Made by a program: the position numbers and the translations under genes | The notes under the pieces: model-generated | Seen by the model: the letters and a program-made list of their open reading frames with translations, nothing else | Told to the model about the DNA's origin: nothing | Databases searched by the model: none | Part shown: positions 2,334-53,219 of the stretch, piece after piece | Numbering within the stretch: the stretch's first letter is position 1 | Layout of the letters: every line of letters begins with the position of its first letter | From: Antedon mediterranea | Taxonomy: Eukaryota > Animalia > Echinodermata | NCBI RefSeq assembly: GCF_964355755.1 | Contig: NC_092674.1 | Location: 22,134,001-22,198,000 of the forward strand | Direction of reading: 5' to 3' | DNA: 64,000 nucleotides

Positions 2334-2899
2334 TTAAAAGTATAGCCTTTTTCTTAAACTAAACGCAGGAAATGGCACTTGTAACTTGTTCTCGCTTACT
2401 TTTTTATTCACATGAATTAAAATATCATTAACGTGATGCTTATCATGTAATGTTGCTAAAGCTTCCGTCAGGCTTTTAATGTAATACGAACCACAATTGG
2501 GGTCGTGATACCTATAGGAATATGCCAGAGGTGCTGTAGAATATCCAATGAGGAAATCAGTCTCATTGAGCTCTTTAGGAGTAGCTCCACCGCCGTCATC
2601 TTTTGGGTCATTGGTATTTCGACATGCTTGTATAAAAAATACTTTAGGTTTTAAGTTAAGACTTTTACAGCTATTTGCTCCAACGCTAGCGGTAAGGTCA
2701 AAAATCATACAAGCTTCTCCATCACTACCATAAACCATGTCATATCCACCATGAGACAGTATACAGCAAACAAAACAATCATAGTCTTTATGATCTTTTC
2801 TTCGCATTTCATCCATCACATCCTTCATCTCCTGAGCAGTTTGGTTGCGTTTCGATACAATTTTAAATCCAAATTCTTTGAAAACACGTTTTAGATTTT
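2334..2899 (-). CDS. Caspase catalytic (p20/p10) terminal exon
   Basis: ORF 2334-2828 extended to the AG acceptor at 2900-2901: [12 protein letters not shown]...SHG...QACRN...[15 protein letters not shown]. Confidence 0.93.
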
Positions 2900-11800: not shown

Positions 11801-13594
11801 GGATCAAGTATTCTTTCAAATTCAGGGATAGCCTTTATTTTGAGTGTTAGTGTCTTAGCATTACGGACATGGAATTTCTTTTGTTCTCCATCTTCAGGAG
11901 CTACTTGAACATTTGTCGGAGTTTTAGGCCAAGAGATTGGTGGTGATCGTAGGAACCCTGGTCCATCGATGACTTTCTTCATATCGTCAATGTTTCCTCC
12001 TCTTGAAACAATATCTATAGTGTTCTGGTCTGATGGTACAAAGGCAATATCTTTGATCGGGTCAAATTCAGAAGTGATCTCACCTACACGGTATGCAACA
12101 TACGATCGGAAAGATTTAGATTGACCTCTCAGCCAACTGATGGCAGTCATACTGTCTGTCCAAATCTTTGAATAAACTATGTCAAACCTCAAAGCATTCT
12201 TTACAGTGAGCATCAGCCTTGAAAGCAGCAGAATTGCTTGAAGTTCTTTCCTGGGGATGCTTGATTGTTTAAGTGGTGTGAGTCTGGCTCGGGCGCACAC
12301 AAACGACAAATAAGCTTCAGTTGACTCTTCATGTGACCACCTTAGCCAAACTCCGATACCCATAGCATCTTCTGAAGCATCACTTGCACCATGCAGAGAT
12401 ACTTTTGGTAATGGTCTTTTTCCTCTAAATGGCTCTGGAATAAGACATCTTGGAATTTCTATGTCACTTGCTTTTTCAAGGTCTTTATTGATTTCACTGA
12501 GAATAGCACAAAGTTCACCTCTCTGGTTAAGTGGTGTATCCCAATCAATGTTTAGTTGCCACAGTTTTTGTAACAGTGTTTTCGGTCGGACAAGGATACC
12601 GGAAAGCATACCGAATACGTCATAGTAAGAAGCGGTTTGTTTCAGAATGCTACGTTTAGTTGGGATTAGACCTTGAATTAGTTTTACCTCTTTGACCTTT
12701 AGAGTGTCGTTCACAAGGTCCCACTTTGTTCCCAAAGCTGTTGCAGCAGTGGCGTCTTCTGATTCATCACACATATTCCTAACGTTGGATTGCCATTTCC
12801 TGATATTGAAGTTTCCTTTCTTCAGAGTCTCAATGAGTGTAGACTTTAAGTTGTCAGCCTCATTAGCATCAGTAACAGATTCATTCAAATCATCCATGTA
12901 AAACTGGTCAGTAACAATTCTTTCTAATTGTTTATCACCGGGTGCATGCTCAGATACTATATGCCTCAAAGTCACAATAGCCGCAGTTGGTGATGGCTTG
13001 TCACCAAACGTAACAGTCGTCAACTCGTACACTTGAATTGGATGGTTAGGATTCTCTCTGAACACAAATCGATGAAAGCGGGCATCATCAGAACTGATTT
13101 TAATAGCCTGGAACATCTTACTAATGTCAGCAATTATACCAACTTCGTTTTCTCGGAATCGTAGGGCAACATCAACAAGGCCAACAGCCATTAAGTCGCG
13201 TGCTACAATGCATAGTGATACCGGACCGACAGACAGACCGACAGACCGACAGACAGACAGACAGACAGAAAATAAATTTTGAAAATGTTAAGCGCGCGTA
13301 CGCATGCGTTACATTCGCTACGCACGAAATTGTATTGCCATATAATGATTTATGCCCTGAAATTTATGAGTACCAAATTTTATTTAATTGTGATTCATGG
13401 TTGTGAAGATATGATTACAAACGTGATTTCGTTAAATCGTGCGTAGACCGCGTAATTTTTTATTGCGCACCGTGAAAACATAACCAAATTGATTCCTGGC
13501 CATAAGGAATATACTGTGAAAAATTGACCTAGCTAGATTAAACTGATATCAAGATAACGTCTTAAAGCGATAAAACGCATAGTGATACCGGACC

Positions 13595-13625
<31 letters not shown>

Positions 13626-22600: not shown

Positions 22601-25600
22601 CCAATCGAGTTCGAACAATACCATGAAAGTGGTCTAATGGTTAGGATATCTGCATATCAAGCAGGCGGTCCGAGTTCGAGTCTCGGTGGGGGCGACTTTT
22701 TCTCATTTAACAGATTTCCTCATCTTTATCGTTTCAAATTAATTAATTAAATTTCAGTATATTACCGGGCGGTTTATATATATATATATATATATATAAC
22801 GCCCTAATTATACAATCCGTTCACACGTACATGCATATGCGTAGTACATCAACAAATCCAGAGCCATAAAGAGTTGCGACTTTGAATGGATTGAATCAAT
22901 TTGTTTAATGGTTTTTGTTAAAACAATAATAACATTATTTTTTGATGATTTTAAACTAAAAAAATAGCTTTAATCCATTTAATTTAACGGCTCTGGCTGG
23001 CTGTACGCGTTTATTTTGTACAGCGATTCTCTATAGTAGGCCTAATGCATTGTTTTTACATTTTGTTGTTTAAAATCATCTTCGCAGTAACTTTAAGATT
23101 GCGTTATCTTAACAAAAACCTTTAAACAAATTGATTGTTTTGATATTTAAAACCTTGTGAATGTTATACATTTTTTAAGCACATGACTCGACTCCATACA
23201 CAACATAGGCATAGTTGGACACAAAGTTGGCCAGTAATGTACCACGTGACTTTCTAAAATCTGTGAATGCGCCGAGAGGTTTGTTGATGTACTACGCATG
23301 CGCATGTACGTGTGAACAGATTGTATATTTAGTACGGCGTTATAACGCCCTAATTACGGCGTTATAACGCCCTAATACGGCGTTATAACGCCCTAATTAG
23401 GGCGTTATAACGCCGTATTATTATAAAATAATTTTTTCTTTAACGGAAATCAGCCAAAGTAGAAAACAAAGAAGGTAGCTTGGTAGAGATATAAACAATT
23501 TTGGAATGGAACTAAAAAAAGCTAAAATGGTGGTTAATATTGAAACTTAAATGTTGGTAGTCAATGGAATAATTTTGCCGATCTGGGAGTATGTTCCTAA
23601 TGTTAATATAAATATATATATATATATATACCATGAAAGCCCCAGTGGTCTAATGGATAGAGCAGCTGCATATCAAGCAGAAGGTCTGGTTTCGATTCTC
23701 GGTAGATATATATATAGTAGTTGAGAAATCTGATTGTTTTATACACACTAATATAGATAATATAAAAAAACATATTATCTAATCTAACAGTCCACCAATT
23801 TATTCCGCCATTACTGAAGAAATGTATAACACTTGTAAGCCTAAAGCACAATATAAAGGGAAAAACAGATTTGTGTGTATGTTACATATAAACGAGGTAG
23901 CCTTTTTAAATTTAAATTAACTGCTACATAACATTTTACCCACTAAGTGTACTGATAAAACTATGAACAATTTGCGATAGTAATTTATGTGAAAATATTA
24001 ATGAGGTTGAAAATAAACAACATAATTATTTTTTGTATATGTAAAGAAGTAAAGCAATGCTTTGTAAGATGTTACGCAATGTTGGAGACATGTTGTACTT
24101 TAACCCAAGAAGTAACATGGATAAAATTGTTCTTGGGAAAACAGTCAAAATAGAAATATATTTTCCGCTTTAACTGCTTGTATGGCAAAGACTTGCTCTT
24201 TAAAAAAAAGTGCCCGCAATGCCGGGTAATGTTTATTTGTGAATTGGAAATTCTCCTCAAATGTGAGTTTTTAATCAATAAAGACAAACAAAAAAACAAT
24301 CGTTTTCCCTTGCTGGGCCGGTCGCGACATTTTTATTTCCGAAATAAAAAAAATTAAATTGAATTTTTCCTCAACGTCTCAAGCAGAAATGTTCCGGGTT
24401 TATTGACTTTTTCTCGTTCATACAGATGTCCTCATTTTAACGTTTCAAATTAATTAATTAAATTCCAGTATATCACCGTGCTTATATTAAAGCAGACATT
24501 ATAAAAAAAACTCTATTGAATGTAACAAATTAGAAATTTAGTGATCATCATAGAATTCTTTTACATTTTTAACAATTTGTGTTATATACAACATAGGCCT
24601 ATAAATATATATTTTTTCTAACAATTATTTGAGATATATTATAAGTTTGTACTACCAGTGCAGGGCGACAAAGGTCAATAAATATATATTGGGTCATTTT
24701 CTACGAAAGGCCTTATTAGACTGAATAGAAACATACATATTTCGATTAATTTGAGTCATATTTTAAATTTGTACTCATGTTTGAACTGTTTTTACGGAGG
24801 TATGTGATATGTCAAAGGTCAAAAATGCCAAAAATCAATCATAATTTCCTAAAATGAACGCTAGGGAACTGTCATGTTTTGTTCTTATTCAACATAATTT
24901 TTATTAGGCATGTTCATCATGGTATTTTCTTCAAAGAAATACAAATACAAATTTTAATAAGTCATGCGAAATTATAGTGTACGTTATATAGGCATATGGT
25001 GCTTCTATATATAAATTTACGTAAGGGCAAAATTCGGTAAATCGCGCCTTACTTCTAGAATTTTTACTCGATGGTATATAAAGTTGGTTCGTACTTTCGG
25101 TACTGATTTTAACCACCTGATGTAACCCTGTTTACTAATTAAATTAAGTTAGATAATTAGTTATTGACGATTAAAACGAATTTAGGTTCAACGATTTGCC
25201 CCAAATAGGAGTGTTTTCCGATCGTGGTATACACTGTCTAATGGATGTCCATCTTGAAAAATACCCGCCACAAAAATGCGAGGAGGCTTCGCATTTTCCT
25301 ATCTCCTCCTACGATAATTGTTTTTAATAGCTGAAAACCGGTTGAACAGCTAGAGTACAGCATCATAATGTTGAAGACAGGCCGATTTTCTTTAAAAAAT
25401 ACTATTTTGATAGATTTAATATAAGATTATACAAATGTATTGATTTGCGATGAATGGAACATCCCAATCTCTCAGTCTGCCAGAGTTTGGTTTAACACAA
25501 GGTAAATTTATGAGCCCTTGGTTTAACACATACGGTAGGTAAATATATGGGCCCTTTGAGAATAAACTTCTTGCAATACTTTGACAATACTGTAAATACA

Positions 25601-27092
25601 CATTATTATATACAAATAAACTTTATACTGACAGTTCCTTCTCAACGTTTGTATTAATTGTAATAATTACCAAAAATATAAACGTCGTAGTGGTGTATCG
25701 TGACATGTACTTTAATATTTCAATCGATTATGACAGTGACAGTTTTAACAAAGTATTAAATCGCAAATGTTTTACTGTATTTAGAGGTATATTATGTATA
25801 GGCTTATAAAACATGAACAAAATATTTCGTTACTGAGTGGATAAAGAATATATTTAAAAATTGTTCCTCTTTGTACCTATCCGCTTTCTCATCCCTCAAC
25901 CCTAATGTTACATACAAAACACAAATTGGGTTTCTTTAAATGAGTCCAAATCAAAAATTTGGACTCATTTTGTGATAAGTTTCTCCTTCGGAAGTAATTC
26001 CCAGGGTGCTAATTTTAGTTGACTACATGAATCATCGTGTCTATTTATTCGTTTCTGTAAACGACAATGTATTATAGTCCTGCGGTACGTACATTTGAAA
26101 TCGCCAGTTTTGTTACGCTGAAATTACTGTATATTCGAGAACCATCTGTGGGCACGACCTAGATGGTACGCGAGCGAAGCGAGCGTACCATCTAGTAATT
26201 AAAAGCCAAAAAAACGTTTTGGACAAACGAGCTAGATTTATAGATAAACTACGAATAATGAATGATGAAGTAAGTTCAAATACTTTTTGCATAAAGAATG
26301 TTGTACGCTACATACCCGGCAGCTTTGTTGCCAAAGTCTTTAGTCCATCTAAAAAGAAGGTAGCAACATGCTTGTAATAATGTTATGATAAACTATAGGC
26401 TTATTTATATATTAAAATTGTTAATATACGCATGAGCAGCAAATAGCAAAATTGATTTAAATAATAGATAAAGTTGAATTAGCCCATATTGGTAACTCGA
26501 TTATTTTACATCAGGAGAAAAAAAAGTGTTGTATAGGCCTACCTGTTATCTTTTTGTCTGCTTTTCCGCAAAGAAGGTTAGCAAACTCCACCAACTGTCC
26601 TCTCGTTTGTAAGAATTCCTCTTTTTCCAGATATAAAACGACGTCCCAAATATCTTTTATTGTCTCTTCATATTTTGATAGGTCATGATAGGCCCGTGCC
26701 TCACGGTAATCATCATCTGTAGTGTTCTTAAGTCCTTTATAAAAGGCATGCCGATACGGTAATACAGAGGCGCCATCTTTCAAGCATTGTGTTTTATTCT
26801 CTGCTTCAGCGGCGTAATCAGTCAATAATTGTTTAGCCTTTTTAGATTTTGTCAGTTCAGCAATGTCCATAAATATTTTCAACTTGGTAGATGAAACAGA
26901 ATCTTGCCGTTCCATTTCATTAAAAATATCTAGTGGCTTCACATTCTCCTTGGAAAGAACATCGATTTCTTCAACAGCACCAGACACAAGAAATATTAAC
27001 TCCTTCATAAAGCGCCCTGTGAACAATTTACCGAATTCTTTTTTAAGATGCTTGTATTTTTTATTATCACCAGATGTAGCCTTAGAAGCCAT
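2334..27092 (-). CDS. Caspase-8/10-like protease: tandem DED-like prodomain plus caspase domain, ~452 aa. Exons (minus): 26543-27092, 7390-7416, 7011-7061, 3868-3924, 3138-3245, 2334-2899
   Basis: All junctions are GT-AG and phase 1, total 1359 nt in one open frame. Motifs [24 protein letters not shown] (catalytic His), [12 protein letters not shown] (catalytic Cys), [17 protein letters not shown]. The link across the 19-kb intron is inferred from phase and from the parallel structure of the paralogs; extra micro-exons are possible. Confidence 0.78.
3138..3245 (-). CDS. Caspase p20 N-terminal exon ([36 protein letters not shown])
   Basis: 108-bp phase 1-1 exon with the classic caspase start motif and substrate-binding Arg. 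Confidence 0.9.
4135..5540 (-). mobile_element. Non-autonomous Helitron-like repeat (family copy 1), interrupted by an RTE fragment
   Basis: Homologous to 6245-6775, 25200-26195 (inverted) and 53757-54125. The minus-strand end carries a GAGCGAAGCGAG hairpin followed by CTAG|T. Confidence 0.55.
4821..5365 (-). mobile_element. 5'-truncated RTE-clade LINE (ORF C-terminus, 3' UTR and (TGAT)n tail)
   Basis: YGAESWTTY...[20 protein letters not shown]...[10 protein letters not shown]...LYGEL...GRPLLRFKD; 3' end GACTGAAGGATGCC(TGAT)n. Confidence 0.85.
6245..6775 (-). mobile_element. Helitron-like repeat family copy 2 (partial)
   Basis: Collinear with 4215-4725 (CAGATGGTTCTCGAATAC...GATACACCACTACGACGTTTATA). 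Confidence 0.6.
7979..8032 (+). ncRNA. Degenerate type-I (Penelope-type) hammerhead ribozyme
   Basis: Stem I TTGAC/GTCAA, core CTGACGA, stem II GTGTGTTAGC/GCTAGCATAC, AAAA in place of GAAA, near-palindromic stem III CAAATTTT, then TA. Confidence 0.65.
8058..8450 (-). repeat. tRNA-derived (SINE-like) repeat, ~330-bp monomer plus partial second unit
   Basis: tRNA-like segment 8156-8230 with A/B boxes; 8058-8125 is repeated at 8386-8450; homologous to 22412-22772 and 23631-23703. Confidence 0.7.
8451..9677 (+). mobile_element. Penelope-like retroelement fragment (RT plus GIY-YIG C-terminus), frameshifted; 3' tail continues after the BEL element at 22316
   Basis: [80 protein letters not shown]...LSTLNK. 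Confidence 0.88.
9678..10201 (-). repeat. 3' LTR of BEL/Pao element
   Basis: Nearly identical to 21788-22315 (about 4 substitutions and one 4-bp indel by eye). Confidence 0.95.
10347..13174 (-). pseudogene. BEL/Pao pol (RT, RNase H, integrase) with a +1 frameshift near 10832
   Basis: [35 protein letters not shown] zinc finger, VDYLGP...VSDNG...AVER; continues in ORF 10347-10838 (INSRPL...LTPNHFL). Confidence 0.9.
13174..13730 (-). mobile_element. DINE-1-like non-autonomous Helentron, copy 1
   Basis: 5' TTTTTAGTCGCGTGGAAGCGACT (subTIR plus short inverted repeat), (GTCT/GTCG)n microsatellites, 3' CACGCGACTTA subTIR then GGCTGTTGGCC stem-loop and TTGTT; inserted in a T run without TSD; BEL frame rejoins as TDL(F)DVALRF. 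Confidence 0.75.
13731..14562 (-). pseudogene. BEL/Pao polyprotein middle segment (post-protease to RT start)
   Basis: [38 protein letters not shown]...VRVVYDG...SLNDYLYKG. Confidence 0.88.
15055..18223 (-). pseudogene. LINE ORF2 (APE endonuclease plus RT) with a +1 frameshift at ~17555 and a TAG at 17446-17448
   Basis: [27 protein letters not shown]...[45 protein letters not shown]. Confidence 0.9.
18669..19334 (-). CDS. LINE ORF1, coiled coil plus RRM plus CTD (L1 ORF1p-like), 221 aa
   Basis: Heptad region, then [34 protein letters not shown]. Confidence 0.85.
   Translation of the reverse strand: MSAVFESEDQLSFESFVKKKLESILKGQESNKAELYEAISFNSARIDALEDENKELKTTVKELTTTVANLQGSTTDLLAKINKTERFSRRNNVRIVGVEENTKENCKLIFENIFSDFFKLDPRPTIERAHRDGKSMNGKPRHIIARFLSYASKIEVMKQRSSALDSQKFYIIDDLTAADLLEKKKWRSQVKEMYNKGTKLRFTAGKWRNSTGIPVNFSKFH
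20194..21760 (-). pseudogene. BEL/Pao gag plus aspartic protease, interrupted by Helentron copy 2
   Basis: YPTFNG...[18 protein letters not shown], three Cys/His knuckles, [11 protein letters not shown]. Confidence 0.9.
21788..22315 (-). repeat. 5' LTR of BEL/Pao element
   Basis: TG...CA ends; gag ATG begins 27 nt downstream on the minus strand. Confidence 0.95.
22316..22362 (+). ncRNA. Penelope hammerhead ribozyme, 3' part (5' arm of stem I left at 9671-9675)
   Basis: Rejoined: GTCTC CTGATGA GTGAGT-tgcacg-ACTCAC GAAA aaagcctg TA GAGAC. Confidence 0.8.
22412..22772 (+). repeat. tRNA-derived repeat, inverted relative to 8058-8450
   Basis: tRNA-like 22628-22695 (TGGTCTAATGG A box, GTTCGAGTC B box); a partial earlier B box at ~22416-22435. 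Confidence 0.7.
22796..23420. mobile_element. MITE with ~65-bp TIRs (22796-22860 / 23278-23343) followed by tandem terminal palindromes
   Basis: ATACAATCCGTTCACACGTACATGCATATGCGTAGTACATCAACAAA is matched in reverse; ATAACGCCCTAATTA(C/G)GGCGTTAT units repeat at 23342-23420. Confidence 0.7.
25200..26195 (+). mobile_element. Helitron-like repeat family copy 3
   Basis: Reverse complement of 4200-4745 and 5440-5540; ends CTAGATGGTACGCGAGCGAAGCGAGCGTACCATCTAG|T. Confidence 0.6.
26543..27092 (-). CDS. Tandem DED-like exon of the caspase gene (183 aa)
   Basis: DED1-like ELIFLV...[22 protein letters not shown]; DED2-like LPYRHAFY...[12 protein letters not shown] (compare caspase-8 SAYRVMLY...LLDIFIEMEK). 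Acceptor 27097-98, ATG 27092, donor 26541-42. Confidence 0.8.
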
Positions 27093-39846: not shown

Positions 39847-41770
39847 CAAATTCTTTTACATTTCTATAAAATGTTGTTATTATACAACATATAAATGTAA
39901 ATTTTTCGAACAATTTCACAAAAACAACCCTTTTACGGCCAATAGTTTTTTAGATTATAGAAATGTGTACTACCAGTACAGGTCAAAGGTCAATCAAAAT
40001 ATTTTGGGTCATTTTCTTTAAAAGGTTCTTATTAGACTGAATAGAAACATATACCTTCAGATTAATTTGAGCCCTATTTAAAGTTTCTTCAACTGTTAGT
40101 TACGGAGTTATATGATATGTAGGTCAAAGGTTAAAAATGCCAAAAATCATACTTCCAGCCATTTTTGGACAAATATTTCAATTAGAACGAATATTAATAT
40201 GCATCTTCCAAATAAGTTGACTCTAAAATTATTTCATTTAATCTAAGCGTTGCAAAGATATGACCATTTTGTTTTCAATGGGTCAAAACATTCAAATTGA
40301 GGTCAGAGGTCAAAGATGAATTTTAGAAATTTGACAACATGGGTTTTTATAACCAACATTATTCAAATATTCATAAAACACAATGTTTACACTTTCTCCA
40401 TGATCTGCACACGAAGGCACTATTTTATAAAAATTGTCTTCATTAATGCCCCTTACTATATTTTACGATGGTCCCTAAACATATCTCAATAATAGTCCAC
40501 AGTCTTAGCTATAATATGTGAATTGTGTTTTTACGACAAAGGGCACAACTCATTGGGCCCATCTCGTCTGCGCCTCTGAATAGGCTCAGTGTACATACAT
40601 ATGGATATCAGACCAATCTTTAAATTTCTACCGTTCAGGGATGGCATTCCGGCAAATAATTCAAGATTTAATTTTTTATATCACTTATTTTCCAATTTAT
40701 AATTTCTGTTACAGTATTAATGCTATTGTTAAAATAGTAAGATTACGATTACACTACAACAAATGGAAATTGTGGTGGCTACAATCAGATTTGATATACA
40801 ATCATAATAAACCATTGGGCCTCTTATTTTCCTATGCGTCACATTGCAAGTTTCTTAAAGTTGATTGTGTATAACTAATAACTCTTAGCCCATTCAAACT
40901 AATTAAGTTTCCCAATCACATAATATCATTAATCATCAGTTGACAATATTGATATCTAATGTTCAAATGTTACTAAATAAATACCACAGGGATAAATAAA
41001 GTCACATCACAACTATGATATTTAATGTTTATAAAAGTTATCACATTCTTTGATCAGCAGTTATTATATATTTTATTTTTTATAATTCTAGAGTACAATG
41101 TATAAGTAATAATGTAATAATAATACTTTATTTAATTAAATTAATTATAACTATAAAAATAATTTAAAAATAAAACTATCTTGTGTAGGCCTGTGTGATA
41201 CAAAGTAGGCCTAGCTAAAATTATATCCCAAAAGCTATATACAAATTATTGTTAAAAATTATAATCAGTACACACAGATACACAAATGTACATCAAACTA
41301 TTACTGTATAGTGAACCACTACACAACAAAAACATTCACAATCTACTTATTTCTATAGATTATTTAAGATTTATATCTAATTACCGTTAACAATAATAAT
41401 GAAAAACAATTTAACGCAATTATTATTTGTTTATGGATGATTTCACAAAATTCAGCGAAAGTGTGAATACAATTTGTAATCCGTGAATTAAATTTATTTT
41501 ACTAGCGATAAATACACTTTAAAGTTTGAATTTTTATTAAATAGATTAGGCCTATTAATGAAAGTTTGGAAATTAACATAAACTGTCTTTATTCCATACT
41601 GTACTGTCATGCACATACATTGATAATTCGTTGCCAATTCGTTTGAACGGATCGCTAATTCATTTTAAGGATGTAAAGCATTGGATTGCAAAGTCGTTTA
41701 CATACTAAGTCGTTGTTCAATTGTTTCTTGTTCTAATCATCTCATAGGCATTACCAATGTCGCTTCCAGG

Positions 41771-44700
41771 TTATTCTTTCGGTGTTCTACGTTGCAAGAA
41801 TTGTATAATTCTATCTACACTTGCCGGTTGATATTCATGACTCCATCTGTAAGATAGGGGGAAAGCGGATAAAATAGAAATTATAACTGAGATAGCATTA
41901 AAGCAAATGAACTACTGAATAAATGAACTTACTTAACAGCATTGTATTTGGTGATTCCTCTCATGTCTTCTGGTAGTGCCTCCATCTTTGGCCATTTGAA
42001 ATCAGGAGAAGTAACAGGAACAATGTTACAGTTAGTTTCCATGGCTGTTACTACCTCCTACAACAAATCATAAATGAGATTATGAATGTCTTTTTAAAAA
42101 AATGATTTTTTTGTACTGATTGTATCGATGAACACCATCAGCATCAAATTGACACATAGCGTTGGAAGTGCAGGCCCATGTTGTGTAATGTAATTTGAAA
42201 GGACGAAACAAAGCACACAGTACAGGATAGCAATAAAAAGCTTGAATAAAACTTTTATAATCAGTAAATGTATTTTCGCATAAGGATTTTTATTTGTTGT
42301 GCCAAAAAACCGATTATATGGAAAATCACACAAGACATAACTACAATACATTTAAGCCTCAATATTTGTTCTTTTGTCAAAATTGGCAAAGGATATGCAT
42401 ACCTTGTGAATCCAATCGTTCTGATCATTGTCACCCATACATCTATCCAATGCATTAATTGACAGAACAATGATAAAGTTGCGTGCACTCCGAATACTAG
42501 TTAGAAGGTTTGTGTCGAATCTGCCTGCCCCTAAATTTTCTACATCCATGAAAACGGTGAAGCCTTTGTCTTTCATCTTTTCTTTAAGAAGACTACATAA
42601 GAGAGAACAATTTATGTAATATAAAACATTGTACAGTATTATAGATATAAAAATGAATACGTCGTTGTTGTTGCAAACAACCAACTTTGTTCATGTCTGT
42701 CTACACTATCAAACAAATGTGATGTACCTATATATGGACATGATGATGTCATATCACTACCATATTTGAGCATATCACTACCATATTTGGCCATATCACA
42801 CTGTTTTTGTCAAATTAGTTTGATAGTTTAGACAGATCTTAAGATTACGACGGATACTCCTTTGATGATCCTTATGATTAAGAAAGTGCAGCAGGTTTAT
42901 TTATTGTAAAAACGATATGAATTAAGTCATTTCTGTGTACAGAAATTCAGATCATAATTGCAAAATATTAAACATTTAATACCTTGCTAACCCTGATCCA
43001 TTGGATCGTCTATAGCTGATGAAGACATCAAGAGTCTTTTGTGGGTTTCCATCTTCCATGTCTTGTGGTAAAGGCTGTTCGTCTAGTTTTATTAATAAAA
43101 CAATATCTATGATGATGGTGTTTTTTTAAATTGCAAAATTAAATTCTCATCCGCCAGAATATCTATAGATTCTTTCAAGTGACAACATGCCACAATAGTA
43201 TTGGTACGGAGGATTTTTCAAAACAAGAAGTAGTTTTATATAATTATTTGTATCTCTGTTGAAATCTTTCCATAAACCAATTACATTATTATTAACAATG
43301 CTAATGGTATCCATAGTAACAAGAAATGTGAATAATGATGTTAAAGGTCACCTGGTCCAGACGAGATGCCTTGCTGTATCGGAACCAAGTCTACCAGTTT
43401 GTCTAGAAATATACGAATAAACTATACGTTGATAATCTATCCATAATAAAAGGTAATTAGTTATCCGCACTCGGCGGATAACTACGTGTTGTTACTTATT
43501 TGCCTTAGCAAGTATCATAGAAACATTACTAAGAGGAATTATATCCTAATATAATATCATATTAATGTCAGATAACAAATTAAATTACATAAATAACACA
43601 TTAATTGTTACTACTACCGTTATTATATGACTGTAACAAAATCGTATACTTGAATTTTATAATCCAACCAACCAAAACAATTAAATATATATTATCCCCT
43701 GAAAATAACATTTTTGGTTGAATATGCCATTTTAATTTTAATGTCAAATAGTCACATAATATTTATTATTCACTTTGACCAAAAAAAAAAATGGATCGAA
43801 AAAAAAAATTACTTTAAAAAATTATAAGTTACAGCCACAAATACAACAATTTTTTCCAGTCAATAGGGGGTTTGGTTGAAATTGAAAATCATTTTTGCTT
43901 GTTAAAACTGAAAATGGCACATTCGAATTCAATTAGTTTTATTGGTTTATTTGACTTGATTTGAATATTAATATTACGTCTTCATTATCATTTCATTTTA
44001 TTTTCAAAGAACCTATTTCTTCAAACACAAGTGTATCATTAATATTATCATGGCAATTAATAATGGTTATTTTTATAATAATGTATTATTTGTATCCTTT
44101 TCTTTCAAAATCGTCGATTTGTTTACGTTTCATTATTTGAAGCATATTATTTTGGTGTCTAATAATACATTATGCAATATTATAATATATTTGATTATTA
44201 GCAATTATTTATAGTATAATTATAATACATATTGATAAAGTACCGTAAGCATAACCAGACTTGACTACTTACCTCTTCCTTCACATTCACCTAAAAAACA
44301 AACCAAAACTGGTGTTAACATGCTTATACCTGCTATTACGAATAGCACTAGTTTTATTAGATAAACAGCCTTAAACAGTAAAACTCTGTCTACACTTATT
44401 TCAGATTCATGTTCACACAACAACTATAAAAAAACATTTTGTTAATTGGAAAGTAAAGTAGCAATAAATTTACAATTGCATGAAAGGAAATCGTAATATT
44501 GTTAGTTTTATAGTAAACGAGTTTCAACGTTTTTCCGATAGGAAATGTACATACTTTTTCCATGTATTACCAACTTTGCCAACCCATCTAAAATGTAAAA
44601 AAAAATATACAAAAGAAAAATTACTGTAGTGTTTTATGTGTAAAGACGTCGAATATTGACTGTATCGCCCCATACGACAATATTTGCCTAGTGTAAAGAC

Positions 44701-47407
44701 GTCGAATATTGACTGCATCGCCCCATACGACAATATTTGCCTAGTGTAGTATCACAAGGTAGTGTGTATAACATGCGGTGCTTCCATAGTGAATTGAAAA
44801 AAAGGTCATGAAACACCACAAAAGTATTGAAGATAATCAATGAGTATGTTTTTAAATGCTTGTACGTAAATGTGTTCTTTTATCATGCTTTCTCCATGCT
44901 TATTATTAACAGTGTTTAAACTGTAATTGTTCTGTAATCCGAATTCCATGTTATTTATAATGATTTAAATTTGCTAGAATTATGTGGCGAATGGAATGTC
45001 TATTTTTTTTTTACCATAATTATTTTTAATGAGGGTAATCCATCCAGCAATTTCTGATCATTAGATACCCTCAGAGGTTCAAGATGCTCTACATAAACAA
45101 AGCCTTTTTACAAGTCTTTGGGAGTGGAGTTGTTTTGTCCTTCTGACATATGACGGGACTTGAGCCCAGGGTTGGCATTTATCAATATTTGCTTATATTT
45201 TTGCTTAAGGTGAAATATTTAAGAAGTGCTTAAGCAAATAACTTAATCTTATTATCAAACCCGCAGAAAAATTGTTACTTTGCACATGCGCTAAATTAAA
45301 CTCTAGAGGGCAGCAAATTATGTCTTAAGACGAAAAATGCTTGCTTACGTTTGCGTATTAACTTTTTTCTCTTACCGATGGCGGCGCTATAACATTTTAT
45401 GTCGGTATTTTCACTCCCAACAAGAGAGGGCGCATTCTGGCTTTTATTACTTAAAATAGAGAAAGAGCAGAACAGTCGGAAATACATACGAAAATCATTC
45501 GCTCTAAACTTAAACAAAGAATATATATCACAAGAATGAGTATTCCGCGATTTTCCCTGTAACAGTAATATTGTCCATGTGGTAGGGCGCCGCCATAAGT
45601 GTGGATGTATCTGGGATGTATACAACTTTTTGTGACGGTTTCAATAATCAAAGGCTAGACCACCGGTAGTATTTTCATGATAAAAAATGTTATCAACTAC
45701 ATGCCAACATCATGTTAAATACTATTTGGATATTTAATTGTTCGTTTTATGCAATTTATTTAGTAAAAACTGCCGTATAAACAGTTTGCTTTATCAACCG
45801 GGCGCTACGATAGCGTGACCGGGCGTGTTGGTGTTTACGCGTTTTCACGAAGGATTGTTTAATAATATTCCTATATTTAACTTGTTTCTGGTAAAACAAA
45901 TAAATGTTAATAACATTTAACATTTTGTCCTATTAATAACATGTATTTTATACTAATTTATATCATAAAAACAATACTTAATTTACCGGGCGTAGAGTAG
46001 TACCCGGCAATGGTAAAGAATAGGCCGTGCTGAGTAACGATTCATTGATTTTTGGTGTTGCTGCGTTAGGCCTTTTTTGTGAACTAACTTAGCATGTTAG
46101 TAAATAATTGTCTGTAAAAGTGAATGTACACTAGTTTGTTAATAAATATGTATTATAAAATAGTTTACAATTGCAAAAACTATTATCATAATTCTATTTA
46201 ATGTGACATGTATAATATCTATTAAATCAAGTCTTATTTAGTATGTATACATCCGCCCTTATGAGGGCGGGCATCACTCACTGGAGCTCTCTGTTACAAA
46301 TTTCTCATGCAAAAATCGCGGAATACTCATTCTTGTGATATATATTCTTTGACTTAAATCAAATCAACATTTATTTATTTTTATCAATGACAGCGACCCT
46401 TGGCAGCCGATACAGTTTTCTAAAAGTTAGTCAATTGGGTAGTAGTAGTACCTATCCCGAAAATATTAGTTTTGCTCGTCCAATTTCTAGGCCATCTTTA
46501 TGAAGATCGATATCATTATTTTAGCGTCCGTAGTACAGCGGAAAACGCACTAGCGTAGCCTTTCCGAATGTTCAATGTTTCCGGCCTAGCGCGCTCGCGT
46601 TGTCAAAAAAGAATGTTTCTGTTGCAGAAATGAGATAAGACGAAATTTTTCATCTTAAGGCAGGGTGTTATTCGTCTTAGATTTAAGACAAAATTAAGCA
46701 AATTTTTTTGCTTAGATATATTGATAAATCTGACTTAGGCAAAATCAAGGATTTAAGGCAAAGTTAAGACCATTTTTTGGCTAAGCAAGTTTGATCAATC
46801 CGGCACTCTTGGAGTGGTAACCACCAATCCCCAACTCCACTACATTGGCCTATATTAGATTATTCAATGTTTTCTTACTTGTTAGTATGTTTTCTGCTCC
46901 TTTATTAAGAAGAGAAGCAAATTTTATGAGCTGATCTCGAGTTTGTAATTCGTTTTTCACTTCTTGTAAGTAGGCTACTAAGTCCCACATATCTTGAATT
47001 GTTCTCTTCTGATGACCTAAACGATAAAAGGCTAGTGCCACATCAACATTTCTGATCCCCGTGCTCTTTATTGCCAAATAGAATGGAATTCTATAGGGTT
47101 TTAAACCGGTCCCACTTTTTAAATACTGATCGGGAAAATTAGACAGCAATTCCCGGAGCTTTACCAATCTTGTAACTTGAGCTATTTCATCCAACATTTT
47201 CAAATGAGTAGGTGAGATAAGAGGTTTGTTATTTTCATCTAAAGTATCTTCTAAATGATTTAAGTAACCATGTGGAGTTGTACTTGAGTCAATCTGATCA
47301 AGATAGTCAAACAATAAAAATTTCAGCAGGCTCTGGTATTGCCCATCAAAACATTGTCCGAACTTGTGTACGAACGTTGGATAATCCATTTTGTTAGCGT
47401 CAGCCAT
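41771..47407 (-). CDS. Tandem DED-like plus SARM1-type TIR domain protein, 362 aa. Exons (minus): 46879-47407, 44273-44290, 43352-43402, 42983-43082, 42403-42592, 41933-42057, 41771-41846
   Basis: All GT-AG with consistent phases (1,1,1,2,0,2), 1089 nt, no internal stop. TIR reads LDVFISYRRSNGSGLASLLK...VFMDVENLGAGRFD...ARNFIIVLS..ALDRC...DWIHKEVVTAM...NIVPV...LPEDM...KWSHEYQ, matching SARM1 TIR; catalytic Glu retained. Confidence 0.85.
44638..44746. repeat. 53-bp tandem duplication
   Basis: GTGTAAAGACGTCGAATATTGACTG(T/C)ATCGCCCCATACGACAATATTTGCCTA, two copies. Confidence 0.9.
45515..46351. mobile_element. MITE with 40-bp perfect TIRs and 7-bp TSD (P-element-like)
   Basis: CAAAGAATATATATCACAAGAATGAGTATTCCGCGATTTT at both ends; ACTTAAA at 45508-45514 and 46352-46358. 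Confidence 0.85.
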
Positions 47408-50400
47408 TTTTCTAAAAGAAAACCAAAATGTATTTAAAATTAAAATGAATGGATACGGATAGTGTTAAGTGATTTTAGGGTAAATCTAGGAAAATCTTTA
47501 AAAAAGTATTTTGTCACGGTTGTGTTTGTAAAATCAATATGTAGAAAATCACATAATTTGTAATTTGTTGTATAATACTTTTGTTGTCGTTCATTTATGA
47601 TGTAGGCTAATTACGACATAGTGAACGGAATCAACACGACTAAGGCTGGACCTGGCCGTTGTGTAAGGTATATGTAAGTGTAGTATTAAATCTTTCAGAA
47701 ACCCTTGTAGGCCTAGAAGGAACTCATTTTCATCATCTGTCTTTCTTTTATTTATCAAAAATAAAACAGGTAATCAGCCTAACACCTAATCAAGTTCAGT
47801 CCATTGAATGATAGGCTACATAATTTTAAGAATACACATAAAACATTTATTTCCCAAGCAGAACGGCCCACTGTGTCGCGGAAGTTTCAAAAGATGTTTA
47901 AACTAAATAATGTATTAATTATACCAATTAGGATGGTATTAATATTTGAATAAACGCCAACACCTCCCCAATAAAACATCACTTAAAATAATTATCGCCC
48001 CTCAACCCACCCTTCCATATTTATGCACACAATTATATTGCATTATATTAATTTATAACACATTGTAGTAGAATTCATCGGACTGTTATCTACAATTTAC
48101 CAACCTTTTTAATTTTTTTTTTTTCACTTTTCATATTTTATTTGATAATAAATGTTACTAGATTATTAAAACTAAAAAAATTAAACGTATCCCTAGAATA
48201 AGCACCTTTCATATTAACTCATCATCACTGTGAAACATATTAGGTTTAGTTTTATATCAAGCATTTCAATAATGGTAACCGACCGAAAACATCCAGGCCA
48301 GAACGCCATTTTAAATCCTTTTACCCGTGTCATTATCATTTCGAGAACCATCGTCTACACTTCCTAGAGCCTATATAACATAATTATGCATGTGGGCTTA
48401 CGTGTGCCCAGTTGGCCTTACTCTGGATATAAAGGTGTGGCTGATATCTATTTAAACACTACTAAATAATATAAAATGTTACCTTCTTTTCTCTTTCTAA
48501 ACACAATTATTTCGTTGGTAGTGTTCCAATAAAGGTCAACTGTCTTCTGTACGTCACATTTTACAATAACAATGGTTGAAGCGGAAATAAATAAATCGTT
48601 TTGATGCATCAAATAACGATGAATGAATAGAATAAATAAAGAATTATATATGAAATTCGAACTTTAACCCTTGATTGCTCTCTCTAAAAATTGCCATACA
48701 CACCGGTACACATCGAATGAATAAATATTCCAAATAAGTTGAACATTTAGGCCTACATTCTTGTAATACGGCGTTTTAAGGAAATGCGTAGACCTACGTC
48801 GATAATCCATGGCGTTATGGTCATGTCAGACACATCATAGGCCTTTTTAACGGTCGAGGTTTATACATTTTTTTAATGTATTTTTCTGGTATTTTATTTG
48901 AAGAATACGTATAATATTACACCAAATAATTATGTTATACAGTACCTACTTTCGATCTTTATTTTCATTTTATTTCATTTAAAAAAAAGTAGGTATCAAC
49001 AATCACATTGAAAGCATATTTCAGAACTTGTCACTTTTGTGTATCTATTCCTATCTATTGTTCTGTTTTGGTGAAATTCCAAATGTAATTGTTTCTCGCG
49101 TAAAAATGTATTTAAGGAGAAATAACTTATTTATCCATGGTGCGACTAAACATTTTTGTTATTACATTTTTTTTACTACATTGCTTATTAACATTATAGA
49201 AAAATGTATGGGCGATATTTGAACACCATTTTTAATCACGGGCTTTCTCGATATTAGGAGGAATATCTTACAGTGGATCTCCTCAAATTGTCCGTCCATG
49301 AGATGCTACAATTCTTATATTGCAAAAAGTTTGATTCATAATATCGCAATGAGGTTGCCTTAGTACCAAATATATCCCCTATTTCCGCTTGTAGCAACAA
49401 AACATGTCTATCATGCTTACTTTTTATTGTTATGAATTATGATCAGAGCTGTGACTAGATCTCAATTTTACTACGTATAATCACAATTTAAAAGGTTCCA
49501 ATTTTATAGTCGTCAAAAATGCAATAGGCCTACATAACAGAATACTGTTACATAAAACATGTGTATAGACTGAGACTTGTATCATGACTGTTATGGGATA
49601 AGATATTTTTTATATAGCAATAAGTACATACATTATAAAATTATATGGGATATTGAAGTGAAATGTACACAGTACAGTATGTATGAATAATATATACAAT
49701 ATTATGAAGATGGATATATGTAGTGAACTCCAGTAAGTGGCGAGTTCAATTGCAATTTAGGTCCTGTACCAATTCCGATAACGCAAATAGGCCTATATCT
49801 TTGTTTATAATTATTAATATTTATTTTCAGAAATTCGAATGAATAATCTCAACCAAAACATGAGATGATATAATATTATGTTCGGCTTCCATGGTACAAT
49901 GGCGGAAGTGTAGGCCTAGGTGGGTATATCAATAGAAGTAGGCCTACTAAAAAGCAAATAATTTTCTTTTGTGCACAGCCTGGTTGTAGCTGTAGGCTAA
50001 ATCAAACTTTATTATTTCGTTACAAAGCGTACATATTGTTGTAGCTTTACAATCTTTAAGGCTATTTAGGGTAAGCTAAAATAAATTTCAAAATGTTAAG
50101 TTTAAAAAACGGTTTAGTAATTACATTGAAGACAGCATTATTTTAACAGATACTACAGTACAACCTAATGCATAAAATTATACTTGATTGTAATGCAAAC
50201 AGTTTTGGGAAGTTTATACTATTTTTCTAAGCATCTTAATCTTCAATTTATATACATAGTTAAAACAATTTAAATCTGACGATTAGGCCTACATTAAAAA
50301 CATTGTTGTAAATGTACGATTTACACATTTTCTTATTGAGATTTATTTAAATTAGTAATAGGTAGCCTACAGCCGAAAGTAAGTAGGCCTATTAACCGGT

Positions 50401-50801
50401 ATATACTTCCCATATACATTTCTTAAACAGGCTTATTCCAAACTCGTGTAACTACAGTATAACTTTTAATAGTATAACAAAGTTCACAAAGCTCATACAT
50501 TTTAACGTACATATATGCCTACTATATCGTACCTACTACCACTTATAGTTACAAACTAAAACAAAACCAAAATATAACTCTGTTGACGTCACTGTCATTC
50601 CTAACCCATACTGACCTCGAATCTGTTGATTGTATAACATACTTAGGTCATGTGATTTGTACTGAATAGTGATAATATGATAACAGTATCAAACGCTGTG
50701 CATCATAGCTAATACATTATGCAGGACATATTAGCAATGTATTTGAAAATATACCCAATAGACTGAAATAACACATTTAAATACACATTATGTAAGTTTT
50801 A

Positions 50802-50900
50802 TTAGTCGTGTGCAATGCGACTCTATAGCTCACTATGTTGGTCGGTTGGTAAACACTCAAATTTACACACGTGGCTGCAGCCATGTATATGGCCTTGTTT
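50802..50900 (+). mobile_element. Miniature Helentron related to 13174-13730; another remnant at ~55880-55956
   Basis: TTAGTCGTGTG...GCGACTCTATAGCTCACTATGT..GGTCGG...GGCCTTGTT. Confidence 0.55.
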
Positions 50901-50975
50901 CATGTGCGCAAGCAAATTAACAGTGGTTTCATCAAAATAAAGTTTTTAAATAATGACCGTAGACTTGAATCTTAC

Positions 50976-53219
50976 CATGGGAGACACATCGGCAATACTT
51001 GCATCCTCCGATTGCGCTTAACTTTCCATCGGTGATTCTTCATCTGAAGTAAAATTAAAACTTATAATTATGAATGCAATTATAAAAATGCATATCATAT
51101 GAGACTAAAGACAGAGAGAACAGAGATGTTGCATGATCATTTCTGCAACATGAATTAATCTCACGGAATGATGCAGTATCATTACGAATAGAGTTTCGCT
51201 ATTATAAATCACAATCAAATGTTTAATATCTTCATTATCATTGTTATTATTTTCTTTAATTTGTTATCACATTTCAGAGTATGACCACCATCGTCATTCT
51301 AAATAATAATTAATATAATCATAATGACTACTATATTTTGTTATCATCTTCATTGTAGCCTTTCTGATATCCCTTAGTAGTCCGTTTAACTTGTATGAGG
51401 ACTATTAAACGTTGATTTTACATCGTAGTTATTCTTCTGATTGTAATAATTAAAAAAATGTATACATAATTCTACTTATACGTCTATATGCCATACCTGT
51501 GAGGTTTAAGTGCTGCACCAATGCTAAAATATAAAAACAAATAGAAAGTTTATTCTTATAACCTTAGTCCAAATGTCTGTAATGAGTTGCTTTACAAATA
51601 TGCTTTTATAAGTCTGTTTCCTTATTTCTTATTCTAAATTTTATGAAAATTAGCAAGGAGGGAACATTAGGTTGCCTTAATATTGTTTGTATCTATATGA
51701 CTAAAATGTAAAAAAAAATCCTATTTTGTTAGTGTTGAGATATCGAATTTGGCAAGAAGTCTATAATAAATCCATAGGCCTATTCAATTGTTTACTATTT
51801 ATAATCTTACCTGGTTGTACCATAACCAAATCTACCAGTTTATCTAAAATAAAAACGCAATTAGCAGTTAATGGTTTCTCGACATGTTTAATCAAATAAT
51901 AGATTACGTATTCGCATTTTTAAATCACTGTGGTACGGAACAAACAATGTTGGTCTTCCAACTTTAGCATTCGATGGTGGCATTCCATGTGTATACAGTT
52001 AAACTTCAAACAAGTCTAAGGAAAGTTTGAATTCCTAAATTAATGTCTACATGAAGAACATCTACGTTTGTAAATTATGTGCAAAACACGATACTTGGTC
52101 TACTGCACCTACCTGTCTTCCGACGAACATTGTCAAAAGTTCTATCTAGATTTTAAAAAACAATACAAAGGTTCATTTAATGAAATTGTGTTTACATTTA
52201 ACGGTGTCATGTTTGCACATTTGTTATGAGATAATAATATTTTACAGATTTGTATAAAAGGGTGCTGCAATGTTTGCACAAAATTTTGTTATCTCTGCAC
52301 ATTTGAGCAAAATTAGGTGCTAAAATGTAACTTTGTGCTCATTTCAAGGCTCATTGTATAGTTGACAGTTTTTGTGATTTTTTCAATTCGATTATACTTT
52401 TATTTCGGATTCACGTCATAGAATATAGGCCTACTCTACATACCTTCATTTGTAGTTACTAAAACACTGAGTGCATCTGGAAAGAAAATAAAACAACAAA
52501 ACAATTATAATAAATATTTTAACTGCAGTTTAATTGGCTATTTAGTTATGTATGTATTTACATTAAATCAAAAATGTAAAATGCACTAGTGATAACTATT
52601 ATTTTTAGTATTCAGTTATGCTGTATTAGATTATGAAAGAAGTACAATAGTTTATTACTCTTTGTCATAACATATACCTGTTATTGTTGCTTTTGCTCTT
52701 CCGCAAAGGTGATCAGCAAATGTATTCAGTTGTTCTCGAGTGGCTAAATCTTTCTCTTTTTCCAGATACAGCACTATGTCCCAGATATCTTTTATATATG
52801 GTATCTTCATATTTTGTCAGGTCATGATAGGCACGTGCATTAAGGAAATCATCAGGTGTTGTGTCCGTCAAAGCTTTATAGAGTGAATGACGATACGGCA
52901 GTACACCTCTGCCATTTGCCAGATACCAATCATTTTCTTCGGCGTACTTCTTGAGTAAATTCGTTGCCATTTTACATTCTGTCAGTCTAGCAATGTCCAT
53001 GAACATCTTTAATTCATCTGGTGCCACAAAACCTTTCCATGCCAATTCGTTGAAAAAATCTAAAGGCCTTACCTTCTCCTTGGTAAGGGTATCGATATTT
53101 ACAGTGCCAGTTAACAGAAATTTTAACTTTTTCATATTGGTCCCCGTAAAATATTTGCCGAATGCATTTATAAGCTTCATATATTTTGGATCATCGGGAT
53201 ACATGTTAACAACAGACAT
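50976..53219 (-). pseudogene. Third tandem-DED paralog, DED-only or disrupted. Exons: 52678-53219, 52444-52476, 52113-52145, 51811-51843, 51497-51523, 50976-51043
   Basis: Close to the caspase DED exon (VLPYRH...ARAYHDL.KYE.TI). A 4-bp TATA insertion at ~52794 shifts the frame, which resumes as KDIWDIVLYLEKE...LCGRAKATIT. Four phase 1-1 micro-exons follow; the last exon reads DEESPMES*. No caspase or TIR exon was found downstream. Confidence 0.72.

Follow-up and report, generated by a model that had tools for sequence, protein, structure and literature searches.

A gene of Antedon mediterranea that joins a predicted tandem-DED prodomain to a SARM1-type TIR domain

On the minus strand of the window, i.e. 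the whole 64,000-nt stretch of Antedon mediterranea DNA analysed here, coding sequence for a tandem DED lies ahead of exons for a TIR domain of SARM1 type; the locus raises the question of whether the two belong to one gene, where its parts come from, and whether its product may be an NAD+-cleaving enzyme driven by DED assembly, as the earlier note proposed.

The DED-TIR gene has seven coding exons on the minus strand (Table 1), with AG acceptors and GT donors at six of six introns and compatible phases at every junction. The spliced coding sequence of 1089 nt encodes 362 residues and a stop codon, and its product is identical to protein P0001, i.e. RefSeq XP_071950587.1 of Antedon mediterranea, which bears out the seven-exon frame of the earlier note; that exon set was right in its seven members, but had overlooked the 33-nt linker exon of isoform X1 (XP_071950586.1, 373 aa), counterparts of which, equal in size, place and phase, occur in the two neighbouring DED genes. 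Micro-exons of 18 and 33 nt in RefSeq models would usually require transcript alignments, and thus their presence supports the gene model being transcribed. A TIR-only product starting at Met207 has been rejected, with no evident start exon.

Table 1. Features of the DED-TIR gene and its neighbours (positions in the window).
Feature	Position	Strand	Remark
Exon 1: tandem DED, aa 1-176	46879..47411 (coding 47407-46879)	-	ATG at 47407; ends in phase 1
Alternative 33-nt linker exon (isoform X1)	44555..44587	-	RefSeq isoform
Exon 2: 18-nt linker micro-exon	44273..44290	-	splice model, RefSeq
Exon 3: 51-nt linker exon	43352..43402	-	39/51 nt identical to caspase-gene exon 7061-7011
Fusion intron, phase 1	43083..43351	-	resembles the caspase intron up to about 43238
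Exon 4: linker ahead of the TIR, SARM1-like; strand betaA and first part of helix alphaA (VFISYRR)	42983..43082	-	
Exon 5: TIR aa 233-296 = human SARM1 578-641; alphaA, BB loop, DWIHK	42403..42592	-	
Exon 6: first residue is catalytic E297 (= SARM1 E642)	41933..42057	-	
Exon 7, coding part: EE loop WSHEYQ, helix alphaE, stop codon	41771..41846	-	
Three AATAAA hexamers 3' of the stop, candidate polyA signals	41493..41593; starts 41593, 41538, 41498	-	weak: 30% GC DNA
Upstream paralog: tandem DED, four micro-exons, short last exon, no catalytic domain	50188..53219	-	
Downstream paralog: tandem-DED caspase P0003, 463 aa, QACR	2334..27092	-	RefSeq 'caspase-6-like'

Transcript evidence comes from run X1, whose reading as RNA is the tool's guess, supported here by spliced contigs (none of the matching runs listed is recorded as RNA). 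One of its contigs corresponds exactly to 46879-47411 and departs from the genome at both splice sites of exon 1, while another, from the upstream DED-only gene, carries a 126-nt insert that equals the four micro-exons of that gene (33+33+33+27). Both borders of exon 1 have thus been recovered in RNA; the join of exon 3 to exon 4, among the junctions that the earlier note had singled out, is not seen in any RNA contig among the matches listed for the read runs, nor does any contig there cover the entire gene. The fusion intron is spanned with 0 differences by a DNA contig of run X4 (42807-43736), and a contig of run X1, which comes from another sample, crosses it from 43057 to at least 43295, as deduced from the contig end values.

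New here, at the level of sequence, is the position of the gene, flanked by a DED-only gene on one side and a DED-caspase gene on the other; with them it shares the DED and linker exons and about 110 bp of intron. The similarity of the fusion intron to the caspase gene's intron extends to about 43238, which would place the breakpoint within about 43237-43083. Taken together, these shared stretches point to a chimera of the 5' end of a caspase gene and SARM1-type TIR exons, exons 1-3 probably stemming from a gene of the DED-caspase neighbour's type. The borders of the TIR exons match what we take to be the intron positions of human SARM1; a literature search on SARM1 exon structure found nothing. 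The prodomain groups most closely with the DED-caspase and DED-only genes on either side (clade 99.8/100) and derives from a tandem-DED module that is expanded in Antedon; the label “caspase-8-like”, given to it previously, fits the predicted fold, which is closest to caspase-8/FLIP. The catalytic domain of P0003 finds its best PDB matches among caspase-3/6/7 types (129-118 bits, with caspase-8 at 117.6), and these scores against caspase-3/7-type structures, together with the QACR sequence, leave caspase-8 orthology of this neighbour not established. The upstream gene has a cFLIP-short-like layout and is frameshifted near 52796 in this assembly. One ISRE-like site and no kB-like site occur within 2.5 kb upstream, and the count of such motifs ahead of all three DED exons stays at the background rate.

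The DED assignment of exon 1 is based on its family, a profile search and the predicted fold; searches with its single sequence gave 0 matches in PDB and 0 in Pfam, where no DED was reported. The AF2 model of residues 1-176 (pLDDT 87.6) has a tandem DED fold closest to caspase-8/FLIP, i.e. a predicted pair of six-helix death-fold bundles in tandem-DED arrangement. The top nine matches of the VIA structure search are all tandem DEDs (Z 9.6-11.3, the next match 7.7), the best being caspase-8 (Z 11.3, rmsd 3.5 over 155 aa), with all these values lying below the Z of 13 that VIA flags for helical bundles; the structural scores are moderate, and the best Foldseek E is 0.015. The profile of the family matches the caspase-8 tandem DED at E 5e-4, and Pfam DED is matched by 16 of 25 relatives at E<=0.001, five of which exceed the curated cut-off. 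Model, structure search and profile agree with the earlier proposal of a tandem death fold at the N-terminus, and the protein as a whole is predicted to have two folded domains connected by some 27 disordered residues.

The KFLL motif is present in DED1. The “FL” motif of DED2 is altered: it maps to A126/F127, by an ungapped alignment extended three residues beyond its end, so that the equivalent of caspase-8 F122 is Ala, and this position is A, G, S or N in 21 of 25 family rows. The caspase-8 F122G/L123G mutant blocks filaments (PMC7864959), and the altered motif thus calls for caution on DED assembly. Positive selection on the DED exon has been rejected, its dN/dS versus the paralogs being about 0.33-0.38, i.e. 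under 1.

The TIR domain matches SARM1 at E 1e-49, which excludes chance, and all 19 PDB matches at E<=0.01 are SARM1/TIR-1; the modelled domain has a TM of 0.85-0.90 to SARM1 TIR structures, and the named motifs VFISYRR, DVENLGAGRF, DWIHK/E and KWSHEYQ are present, in full accord with the SARM1 type claimed for it. Of 22 SARM1 TIRs compared, 20 share 52-62% identity with it and two share 51%. The alignment of exon 5 with human SARM1 579-641 is gapless, therefore E297 corresponds to E642, and the catalytic glutamate that the earlier note had identified is retained. Among the 55 columns conserved across 68 distinct SARM1 TIRs, 50 are retained; of 55 differences, only 5 lie in these columns, versus 21.5 expected (P 1e-9). 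A checklist of 18 sites is identical to human SARM1 throughout (18 of 19 with K597 added); it includes L579, D594, E596, G601 and H685, named as interface residues in PMC8635717, as well as E642 and Y687, named in PMC11874154. The equivalents of Y568, R569, W638, H685, Y687 and Q688 in the NAD pocket and the EE loop are also retained. Two variants of run X1 in exon 5 are both synonymous.

The BB loop reads ENLGAG against the motif E(R/K)LEAG, with E596 and G601 retained and K597 (now Asn) and E599 changed; K597 is important for catalysis (PMC7075850), and its position also varies among other SARM-like TIRs, the same 9-mer being found in 1 of 123 TIR hits. Helix alphaA carries V582E, H583K and L586D, and columns 582-584 make up three of the five conserved ones that are broken; novel residues are not significantly clustered in this helix (permutation P 0.19). 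Helix alphaA docks on ARM (PMC7688312) and also forms the AE interface that is needed for activity (PMC8635717), and thus its changes could weaken the enzyme; literature searches found no paper on residue-level ARM-TIR contacts of V582, H583 and L586, and the link to ARM docking is the helix-level statement of PMC7688312. A conserved glutamate gives no guarantee of activity (10.64898/2026.04.20.719644), the SARM1 TIR requires self-association (PMC8635717), and SAM-TIR without ARM kills cells (PMC7688312).

Long branches distorted a first TIR tree with 46 rows, which was then rebuilt with 23 rows, 23 having been dropped, including all seven long ones. In the rebuilt tree, the domain falls within the SARM1 group, among eight deuterostome rows (support 96). 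The best tree joins it to vertebrates (84, unstarred), while Anneissia SARM1 has the highest identity and the shortest path; neither a crinoid clade (p-AU 0.255) nor the arthropod control (p-AU 0.12) is rejected. The branch is long (0.71 versus 0.09 for Anneissia SARM1).

The gene lacks the architecture of a full SARM1 orthologue, having neither N-terminal ARM nor tandem SAM: tblastn with five full-length SARM1 proteins matches the TIR exons alone in the 64 kb (E<=1), as the earlier note had held, and Pfam finds only TIR on P0001 and P0002. A published survey describes TIRs of the SARM1 group as always accompanied by SAM, ARM or both and typically present once per genome (PMC7075850), and DED is missing from the TIR-partner lists of 13 genomes (PMC2575513, supplement 4). 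No further DED+TIR protein occurs among 123 TIR hits and 25 DED hits or turned up in the literature searches, which found no description of this architecture either, consistent with its having been called uncharacterised; none of the 63 pattern matches of a metagenome scan was confirmed as a relative. A DED+TIR protein is known from one species only.

Compared with SARM1, dSarm and TIR-1 (ARM-SAM-SAM-TIR NADases), the protein has a TIR of the same group, with the E642 equivalent, the EE loop HEYQ and TM up to 0.90, but a tandem DED replaces both ARM, with its NMN/NAD+ sensing and autoinhibition, and the SAM octamer, and the alphaA changes and K597N set it apart. With caspase-8/-10 and cFLIP it shares the tandem-DED fold, the KFLL of DED1 and a locus in which DED-caspase and DED-only genes are clustered, whereas its effector is a TIR and not a protease, identity is 15-19%, and the FL motif of DED2 is altered. 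MyD88 (death domain-TIR) and the Death-TIR and CARD-TIR hybrids of amphioxus also combine a death-fold domain with a C-terminal TIR; MyD88 TIRs rarely have the catalytic glutamate (PMC7075850), which is present here. In bacterial effectors with bDLD3 or EAD7 and TIR, a death-like adaptor domain similarly recruits an interchangeable TIR or caspase effector (PMC8195603), but their origin is independent, the Antedon gene being assembled from animal SARM1 and animal DED exons; the Atlas searches, both under 0.9 and leads only, gave a MyD88 look-alike (0.85) and EAD7-TIR (0.86). Oyster TIR-STING, TEP1 TeTIR and plant TNL TIRs also place an enzymatic TIR on a non-SAM scaffold (PDB 6wt7; 10.64898/2026.09.21.753143), although these TIRs belong to other groups, and what drives them is a ligand-binding or NTPase domain instead of a death fold.

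We lean towards the explanation that the gene combines DED-caspase 5' exons with SARM1-type TIR exons and that its protein probably acts as an NAD+-cleaving effector recruited via its DEDs; a DED front end on the enzyme domain of SARM1, a nerve-degeneration protein, makes NAD+ destruction likely upon clustering, rather than under SARM1's usual metabolic control. A duplicate of the local DED-caspase gene would have recombined, within a phase-1 intron, with a SARM1 copy, of which it took up the 3' part. Without a SAM ring, the protein would be monomeric and quiet, leaving the ARM brake unneeded, and the ARM-docking face of alphaA may have drifted. An upstream DED-bearing adaptor or receptor would template DED assembly and recruit the protein as caspases are recruited; the clustered TIRs would form SARM1-type two-stranded assemblies that cleave NAD+ to ADPR/cADPR, and the outcome would be caspase-independent death or a signal, with the neighbouring DED-only gene as a putative FLIP-short-like brake.

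A natural, apparently selected tandem-DED fusion would show that the SARM1 enzyme is a portable effector in animals, like the TIRs of bacterial and plant immunity, and apoptosis-type platforms could then output NAD+ loss. More tentatively, caspases, the DED-only brake and the SARM1-type NADase might form a three-way switch on one DED platform, in which a DISC-like complex of a deuterostome kills by NAD+ destruction when caspases are blocked or outcompeted; if true, no earlier animal example of a SARM1 enzyme gated by death-fold assembly would be known. With one small protein, two questions also become testable: can the geometry of a death fold drive the antiparallel two-stranded assembly of TIRs, and are given alphaA residues conserved for docking on ARM or for TIR-TIR contact?

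It is unlikely that the protein is instead a FLIP-like modulator, which would enter the DED assembly formed by the neighbouring caspases to block or redirect these enzymes, its TIR being a weak or non-catalytic scaffold. Such a role would suit K597N, the charged alphaA substitutions, the long TIR branch and the adjoining DED-only paralog, and cFLIP-S terminates caspase-8 filaments merely by joining (PMC7864959); however, a pure decoy would have no need of catalytic residues, and the NAD pocket, the catalytic glutamate and the EE loop are all retained, with changes biased away from conserved columns.

We give little credence to a constitutive or weak cADPR-producing enzyme that is set by expression level, its DEDs only localising or dimerising it in place of nucleated assembly: many animal TIRs make cADPR without NAD+ depletion (10.64898/2026.04.20.719644), the FL motif of DED2 is altered, and a nucleation barrier is found in only 21 of 109 human death-fold domains, mostly adaptors (PMC10055258), but SARM1-type TIRs deplete NAD+ in an assembly-dependent manner (PMC8635717), and the upstream ISRE-like and kB-like sites stay at background. 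About as little can be granted to a regulator of canonical SARM1, an activator or a dominant negative whose TIR co-assembles with SARM1 TIR strands; the retained TIR-TIR interface residues (L579, D594, E596, G601, H685, Y687) and the 62% identity to crinoid SARM1 over 128 columns would fit it, while its own catalytic glutamate is more simply explained by autonomous activity, and the required co-expressed canonical SARM1 finds no hit named Antedon among 84 long hits, a weak point in a word-limited search.

That the DED and TIR exons are not co-transcribed and the gene is an artefact of annotation or assembly (e.g. exon 1 serving the caspase gene as an alternative first exon, beside an orphan SARM1 piece) is very improbable: the exon 3-exon 4 splice and a whole-gene contig are absent among the listed rows and runs X2 and X4 possibly come from the assembly's own sample, but phases fit everywhere, the gene has its own linker exons between DED and TIR, two RefSeq isoforms join both domains, the TIR is under constraint yet the window offers it no other start exon, and contigs of X4 and X1 bridge the fusion intron.

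Pfam-based architecture surveys miss this DED subfamily, and thus more such fusions may be hidden. Antedon also has DED-NACHT and other DED-fused proteins; the DED family is heavily shuffled, DED-TIR being so far a single-species innovation.

The seven exons of the DED-TIR gene splice to 362 amino acids and a stop, with GT-AG borders at all six introns (phases 1, 1, 1, 2, 0, 2), and the product, P0001, is identical to RefSeq XP_071950587.1 of Antedon mediterranea ('uncharacterized protein isoform X2'), so that the frame proposed in the earlier note stands; the same protein was the sole match, identical letter for letter, to the exon 1 query among longer proteins (518 candidates). XP_071950586.1, of the same cluster, is labelled 'NAD(+) hydrolase tir-1-like isoform X1'. 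Since its product corresponds to RefSeq proteins, the gene has already been automatically annotated; the DED is not recognised there, and Pfam gives TIR_2 only.

Exons of the DED-TIR gene and neighbouring tandem-DED genes
Feature	Position	Strand	Remark
Exon 1	47407-46879	-	529 nt, DED-TIR gene
Exon 2	44290-44273	-	18 nt, DED-TIR gene
Exon 3	43402-43352	-	51 nt, DED-TIR gene
Exon 4	43082-42983	-	100 nt, DED-TIR gene
Exon 5	42592-42403	-	190 nt, DED-TIR gene
Exon 6	42057-41933	-	125 nt, DED-TIR gene
Exon 7	41846-41771	-	76 nt, DED-TIR gene
Additional exon of isoform X1	44587-44555	-	33 nt, adds 11 aa (XP_071950586.1)
DED-only paralog	53219-50188	-	cFLIP-short-like layout
Tandem-DED caspase P0003	27092-2334	-	RefSeq 'caspase-6-like'

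Five sequencing runs match the locus, none recorded as RNA, and three were aligned. Run X1 behaves as RNA: a 611-nt contig matches 46879-47411 exactly and departs from the genome at both exon 1 splice sites, while a contig over the upstream gene links 52678 and 51043 through a 126-nt insert, which equals the combined length of that gene's four GT-AG micro-exons. The proposed junctions are thus borne out at exon 1, but an exon 3-exon 4 join is absent from the run contigs among the matches listed, and for this reason the evidence for the DED-to-TIR splice comes from the RefSeq models, the intron phases and the gene layout; co-transcription of the DED and TIR exons is very probable. A DNA contig of run X4, possibly the assembly's own sample, spans exons 3 and 4 (42807-43736) with no differences, and a contig of run X1 extends from 43057 to 43295 or beyond, as deduced from contig-end values.

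The exon 1 module, searched with phmmer against 1.84 billion representatives, found 26 proteins at E<=0.001, the query included. Among the 25 relatives, Pfam gives a DED match at E<=0.001 in 16, above the curated cut-off in five, and a TIR in none; 19 of the 20 whose source species was looked up are A. mediterranea. The module has been much shuffled in Antedon, because it is fused to many different domains (caspase, NACHT, kinase, MAM, ZU5-UPA, Roc, very large GTPase, RING-NHL, ubiquitin). The AF2 model of the N-terminus (25-row alignment) has pLDDT 87.6 and pTM 0.80; the top Foldseek rows are the tandem DEDs of caspase-8, cFLIP and vFLIP (best E 0.015, TM 0.62); the first nine VIA entries among 48,161 chains are all tandem DEDs (Z 11.3-9.6; next 7.7); and the best PDB match of the family profile is the caspase-8 prodomain (E 5.4e-4). 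Every score is moderate, and together they agree on a predicted tandem DED, as had been claimed from the sequence. In the extended caspase-8 profile alignment, F122/L123 corresponds to A126/F127 of P0001, with a small residue at the F122 position in 21 of the 25 rows of the family; as A126 sits where F122G/L123G blocks caspase-8 filaments (PMC7864959, excerpt), the mode of DED assembly may differ from that of caspase-8.

Each of the 19 PDB matches of the C-terminal domain at E<=0.01 is a SARM1 or TIR-1 entry (best E 1.1e-49), and exon 5 aligns without gaps to human SARM1 579-641, with E297 at the position of the catalytic E642, in agreement with the SARM1-type TIR described earlier. Relative to 68 distinct TIRs (from 84 long SARM1-like matches, 16 identical or short rows dropped), P0001 departs from the majority residue at 55 of 141 positions; only five of these differences (V582E, H583K, L584M, K602R, K694R) affect the 55 columns with conservation of >=90%, where 21.5 were expected (P 1.3e-9), and the median SARM1 has 0 such changes. 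Eighteen of 18 checklist sites, drawn in part from excerpts of PMC8635717, PMC11874154 and PMC8266388, are as in human SARM1; outside this list, the equivalent of K597, a position named important (PMC7075850, excerpt), is Asn. Three of the five broken columns lie in helix alphaA, which contacts ARM in the inhibited octamer (PMC7688312, excerpt) and also builds the AE interface (PMC8635717, excerpt); loss of the constraint from ARM docking would be the simple reading, but the clustering of novel residues in this helix does not reach significance (P 0.19). In the full-length model there are two domains (pTM 0.54) and a linker at 184-210 with pLDDT <50; the modelled TIR fits SARM1 TIR structures at TM 0.85-0.90.

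The SARM1 TIR cleaves NAD+ only on self-association, with the ring supplied by SAM and the brake by ARM (PMC8635717, excerpt), and ARM-less SAM-TIR is lethal to cells (PMC7688312, excerpt). P0001, without SAM and ARM, would have to cluster by other means, and the tandem DED is the only candidate in the chain. Because adaptors rather than effectors carry the nucleation barrier in the human and sponge pathways (PMC10055258, excerpt), recruitment to an upstream DED platform would be favoured over self-nucleation; candidate platforms are DED-NACHT proteins, a FADD or the DEDs of the neighbouring caspases. That P0001 is a putative NADase effector recruited in this way we hold to be somewhat probable. 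A FLIP-like decoy is unlikely, a low-level cADPR producer lacking a switch quite unlikely, and a regulator of canonical SARM1 very unlikely. The DED-TIR observation itself is real, an artefactual gene being highly improbable.

The three tandem-DED genes of the window share one orientation, and in all three the DED exon is followed by a 33-nt phase-1 exon and then more micro-exons; their DEDs and that of P0004 form one clade (99.8/100). Exon 3 is identical to the caspase-gene exon 7061-7011 at 39 of 51 nt, with similarity extending into the intron to about 43238, and exon 4 is akin to the linker that precedes the TIR in Anneissia japonica SARM1 (PQKTLDVFISYRR in common); on these grounds, we infer that the fusion breakpoint lies within this phase-1 intron, somewhere from about 43237 to 43083. 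The three TIR introns presumably occupy human SARM1 intron positions, with partial support from two models: in the Anneissia SARM1 database model a gap stops where E642 would be, and a spider isoform diverges at the last intron position. In the tree, the TIR sits among deuterostome rows, grouping weakly with vertebrates, and Anneissia SARM1 is nearest by identity (62%, 128 columns) and by tree path. Under the AU test a crinoid clade and an arthropod control are both acceptable, and the tree does not fix the donor lineage. With exon 1 at dS 1.6-2.2 (near saturation) and dN 0.6-0.7 against the paralogs, the DED copy is, by these estimates, old and on average under purifying selection; exon 3 and the adjoining intron match more closely, which suggests that the clustered genes exchanged sequence later.

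The DED-only paralog is frameshifted near 52796 in the assembly, whereas over 52678-53134 the contig of run X1 is shorter by 4 nt, suggesting that an allele with an intact frame of about 229 aa exists. The DEDs of P0003 were missed by Pfam on the full protein, and P0004, a second tandem-DED caspase, is encoded elsewhere on this contig, beyond the window. The Antedon module is expanded (P0005-P0027), mostly under Pfam's DED cut-off, some members having hydrophobic tails.

A second DED+TIR protein was found neither among the DED relatives nor among 123 SARM1-like proteins (39 of 124 plus 84 of 206 candidates, from word-limited searches), none of which the tandem-DED profile matches, and no such relative was confirmed in a metagenome scan. 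The design principle is already known from bacterial death-like domain-TIR proteins, TIR-STING and TNLs, and surveys of TIR architectures in amphioxus and bivalves could list DED-TIR proteins of other TIR groups. DED is absent from the TIR partners across 13 genomes (PMC2575513 supplement 4), and SARM1-group TIRs are described as carrying SAM and/or ARM (PMC7075850, excerpt). A full-text literature search gave no paper naming DED-TIR, TIR-DED, DED-DED-TIR or DED+TIR, and further literature searches, with excerpts of PMC8662601, PMC2858798, PMC8195603, 10.64898/2026.09.21.753143 and 10.64898/2026.04.20.719644 also consulted, brought up no account of the architecture; within this literature it appears undescribed in an animal, in line with the earlier note, both parts being known singly.

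Elsewhere in the window, a BEL/Pao-type LTR element (about 21862-10350) lies in the 19-kb intron of the caspase gene (26315-7417) and is broken up by a LINE-like RT (18250-15058) and a 230-aa frame (19361-18672); an element of about 900 bp at 38602-39500, 75% similar to its own reverse complement, is likely a foldback or MITE-type repeat; and a very high-copy short repeat occupies 42715-42790, between exons 4 and 5. SARM1-like TIRs also occur in other architectures in the metagenomic proteins P0073, which has the BB-loop 9-mer of P0001, and P0071, which has HEAT repeats. P0051, P0056, P0061 and P0062 are SARM1-type TIR proteins of 275-324 aa with no SAM match; the first two, with an apparent signal peptide and membrane segment ahead of the TIR, may represent a further SARM1-TIR fusion, or else a wrong gene prediction.
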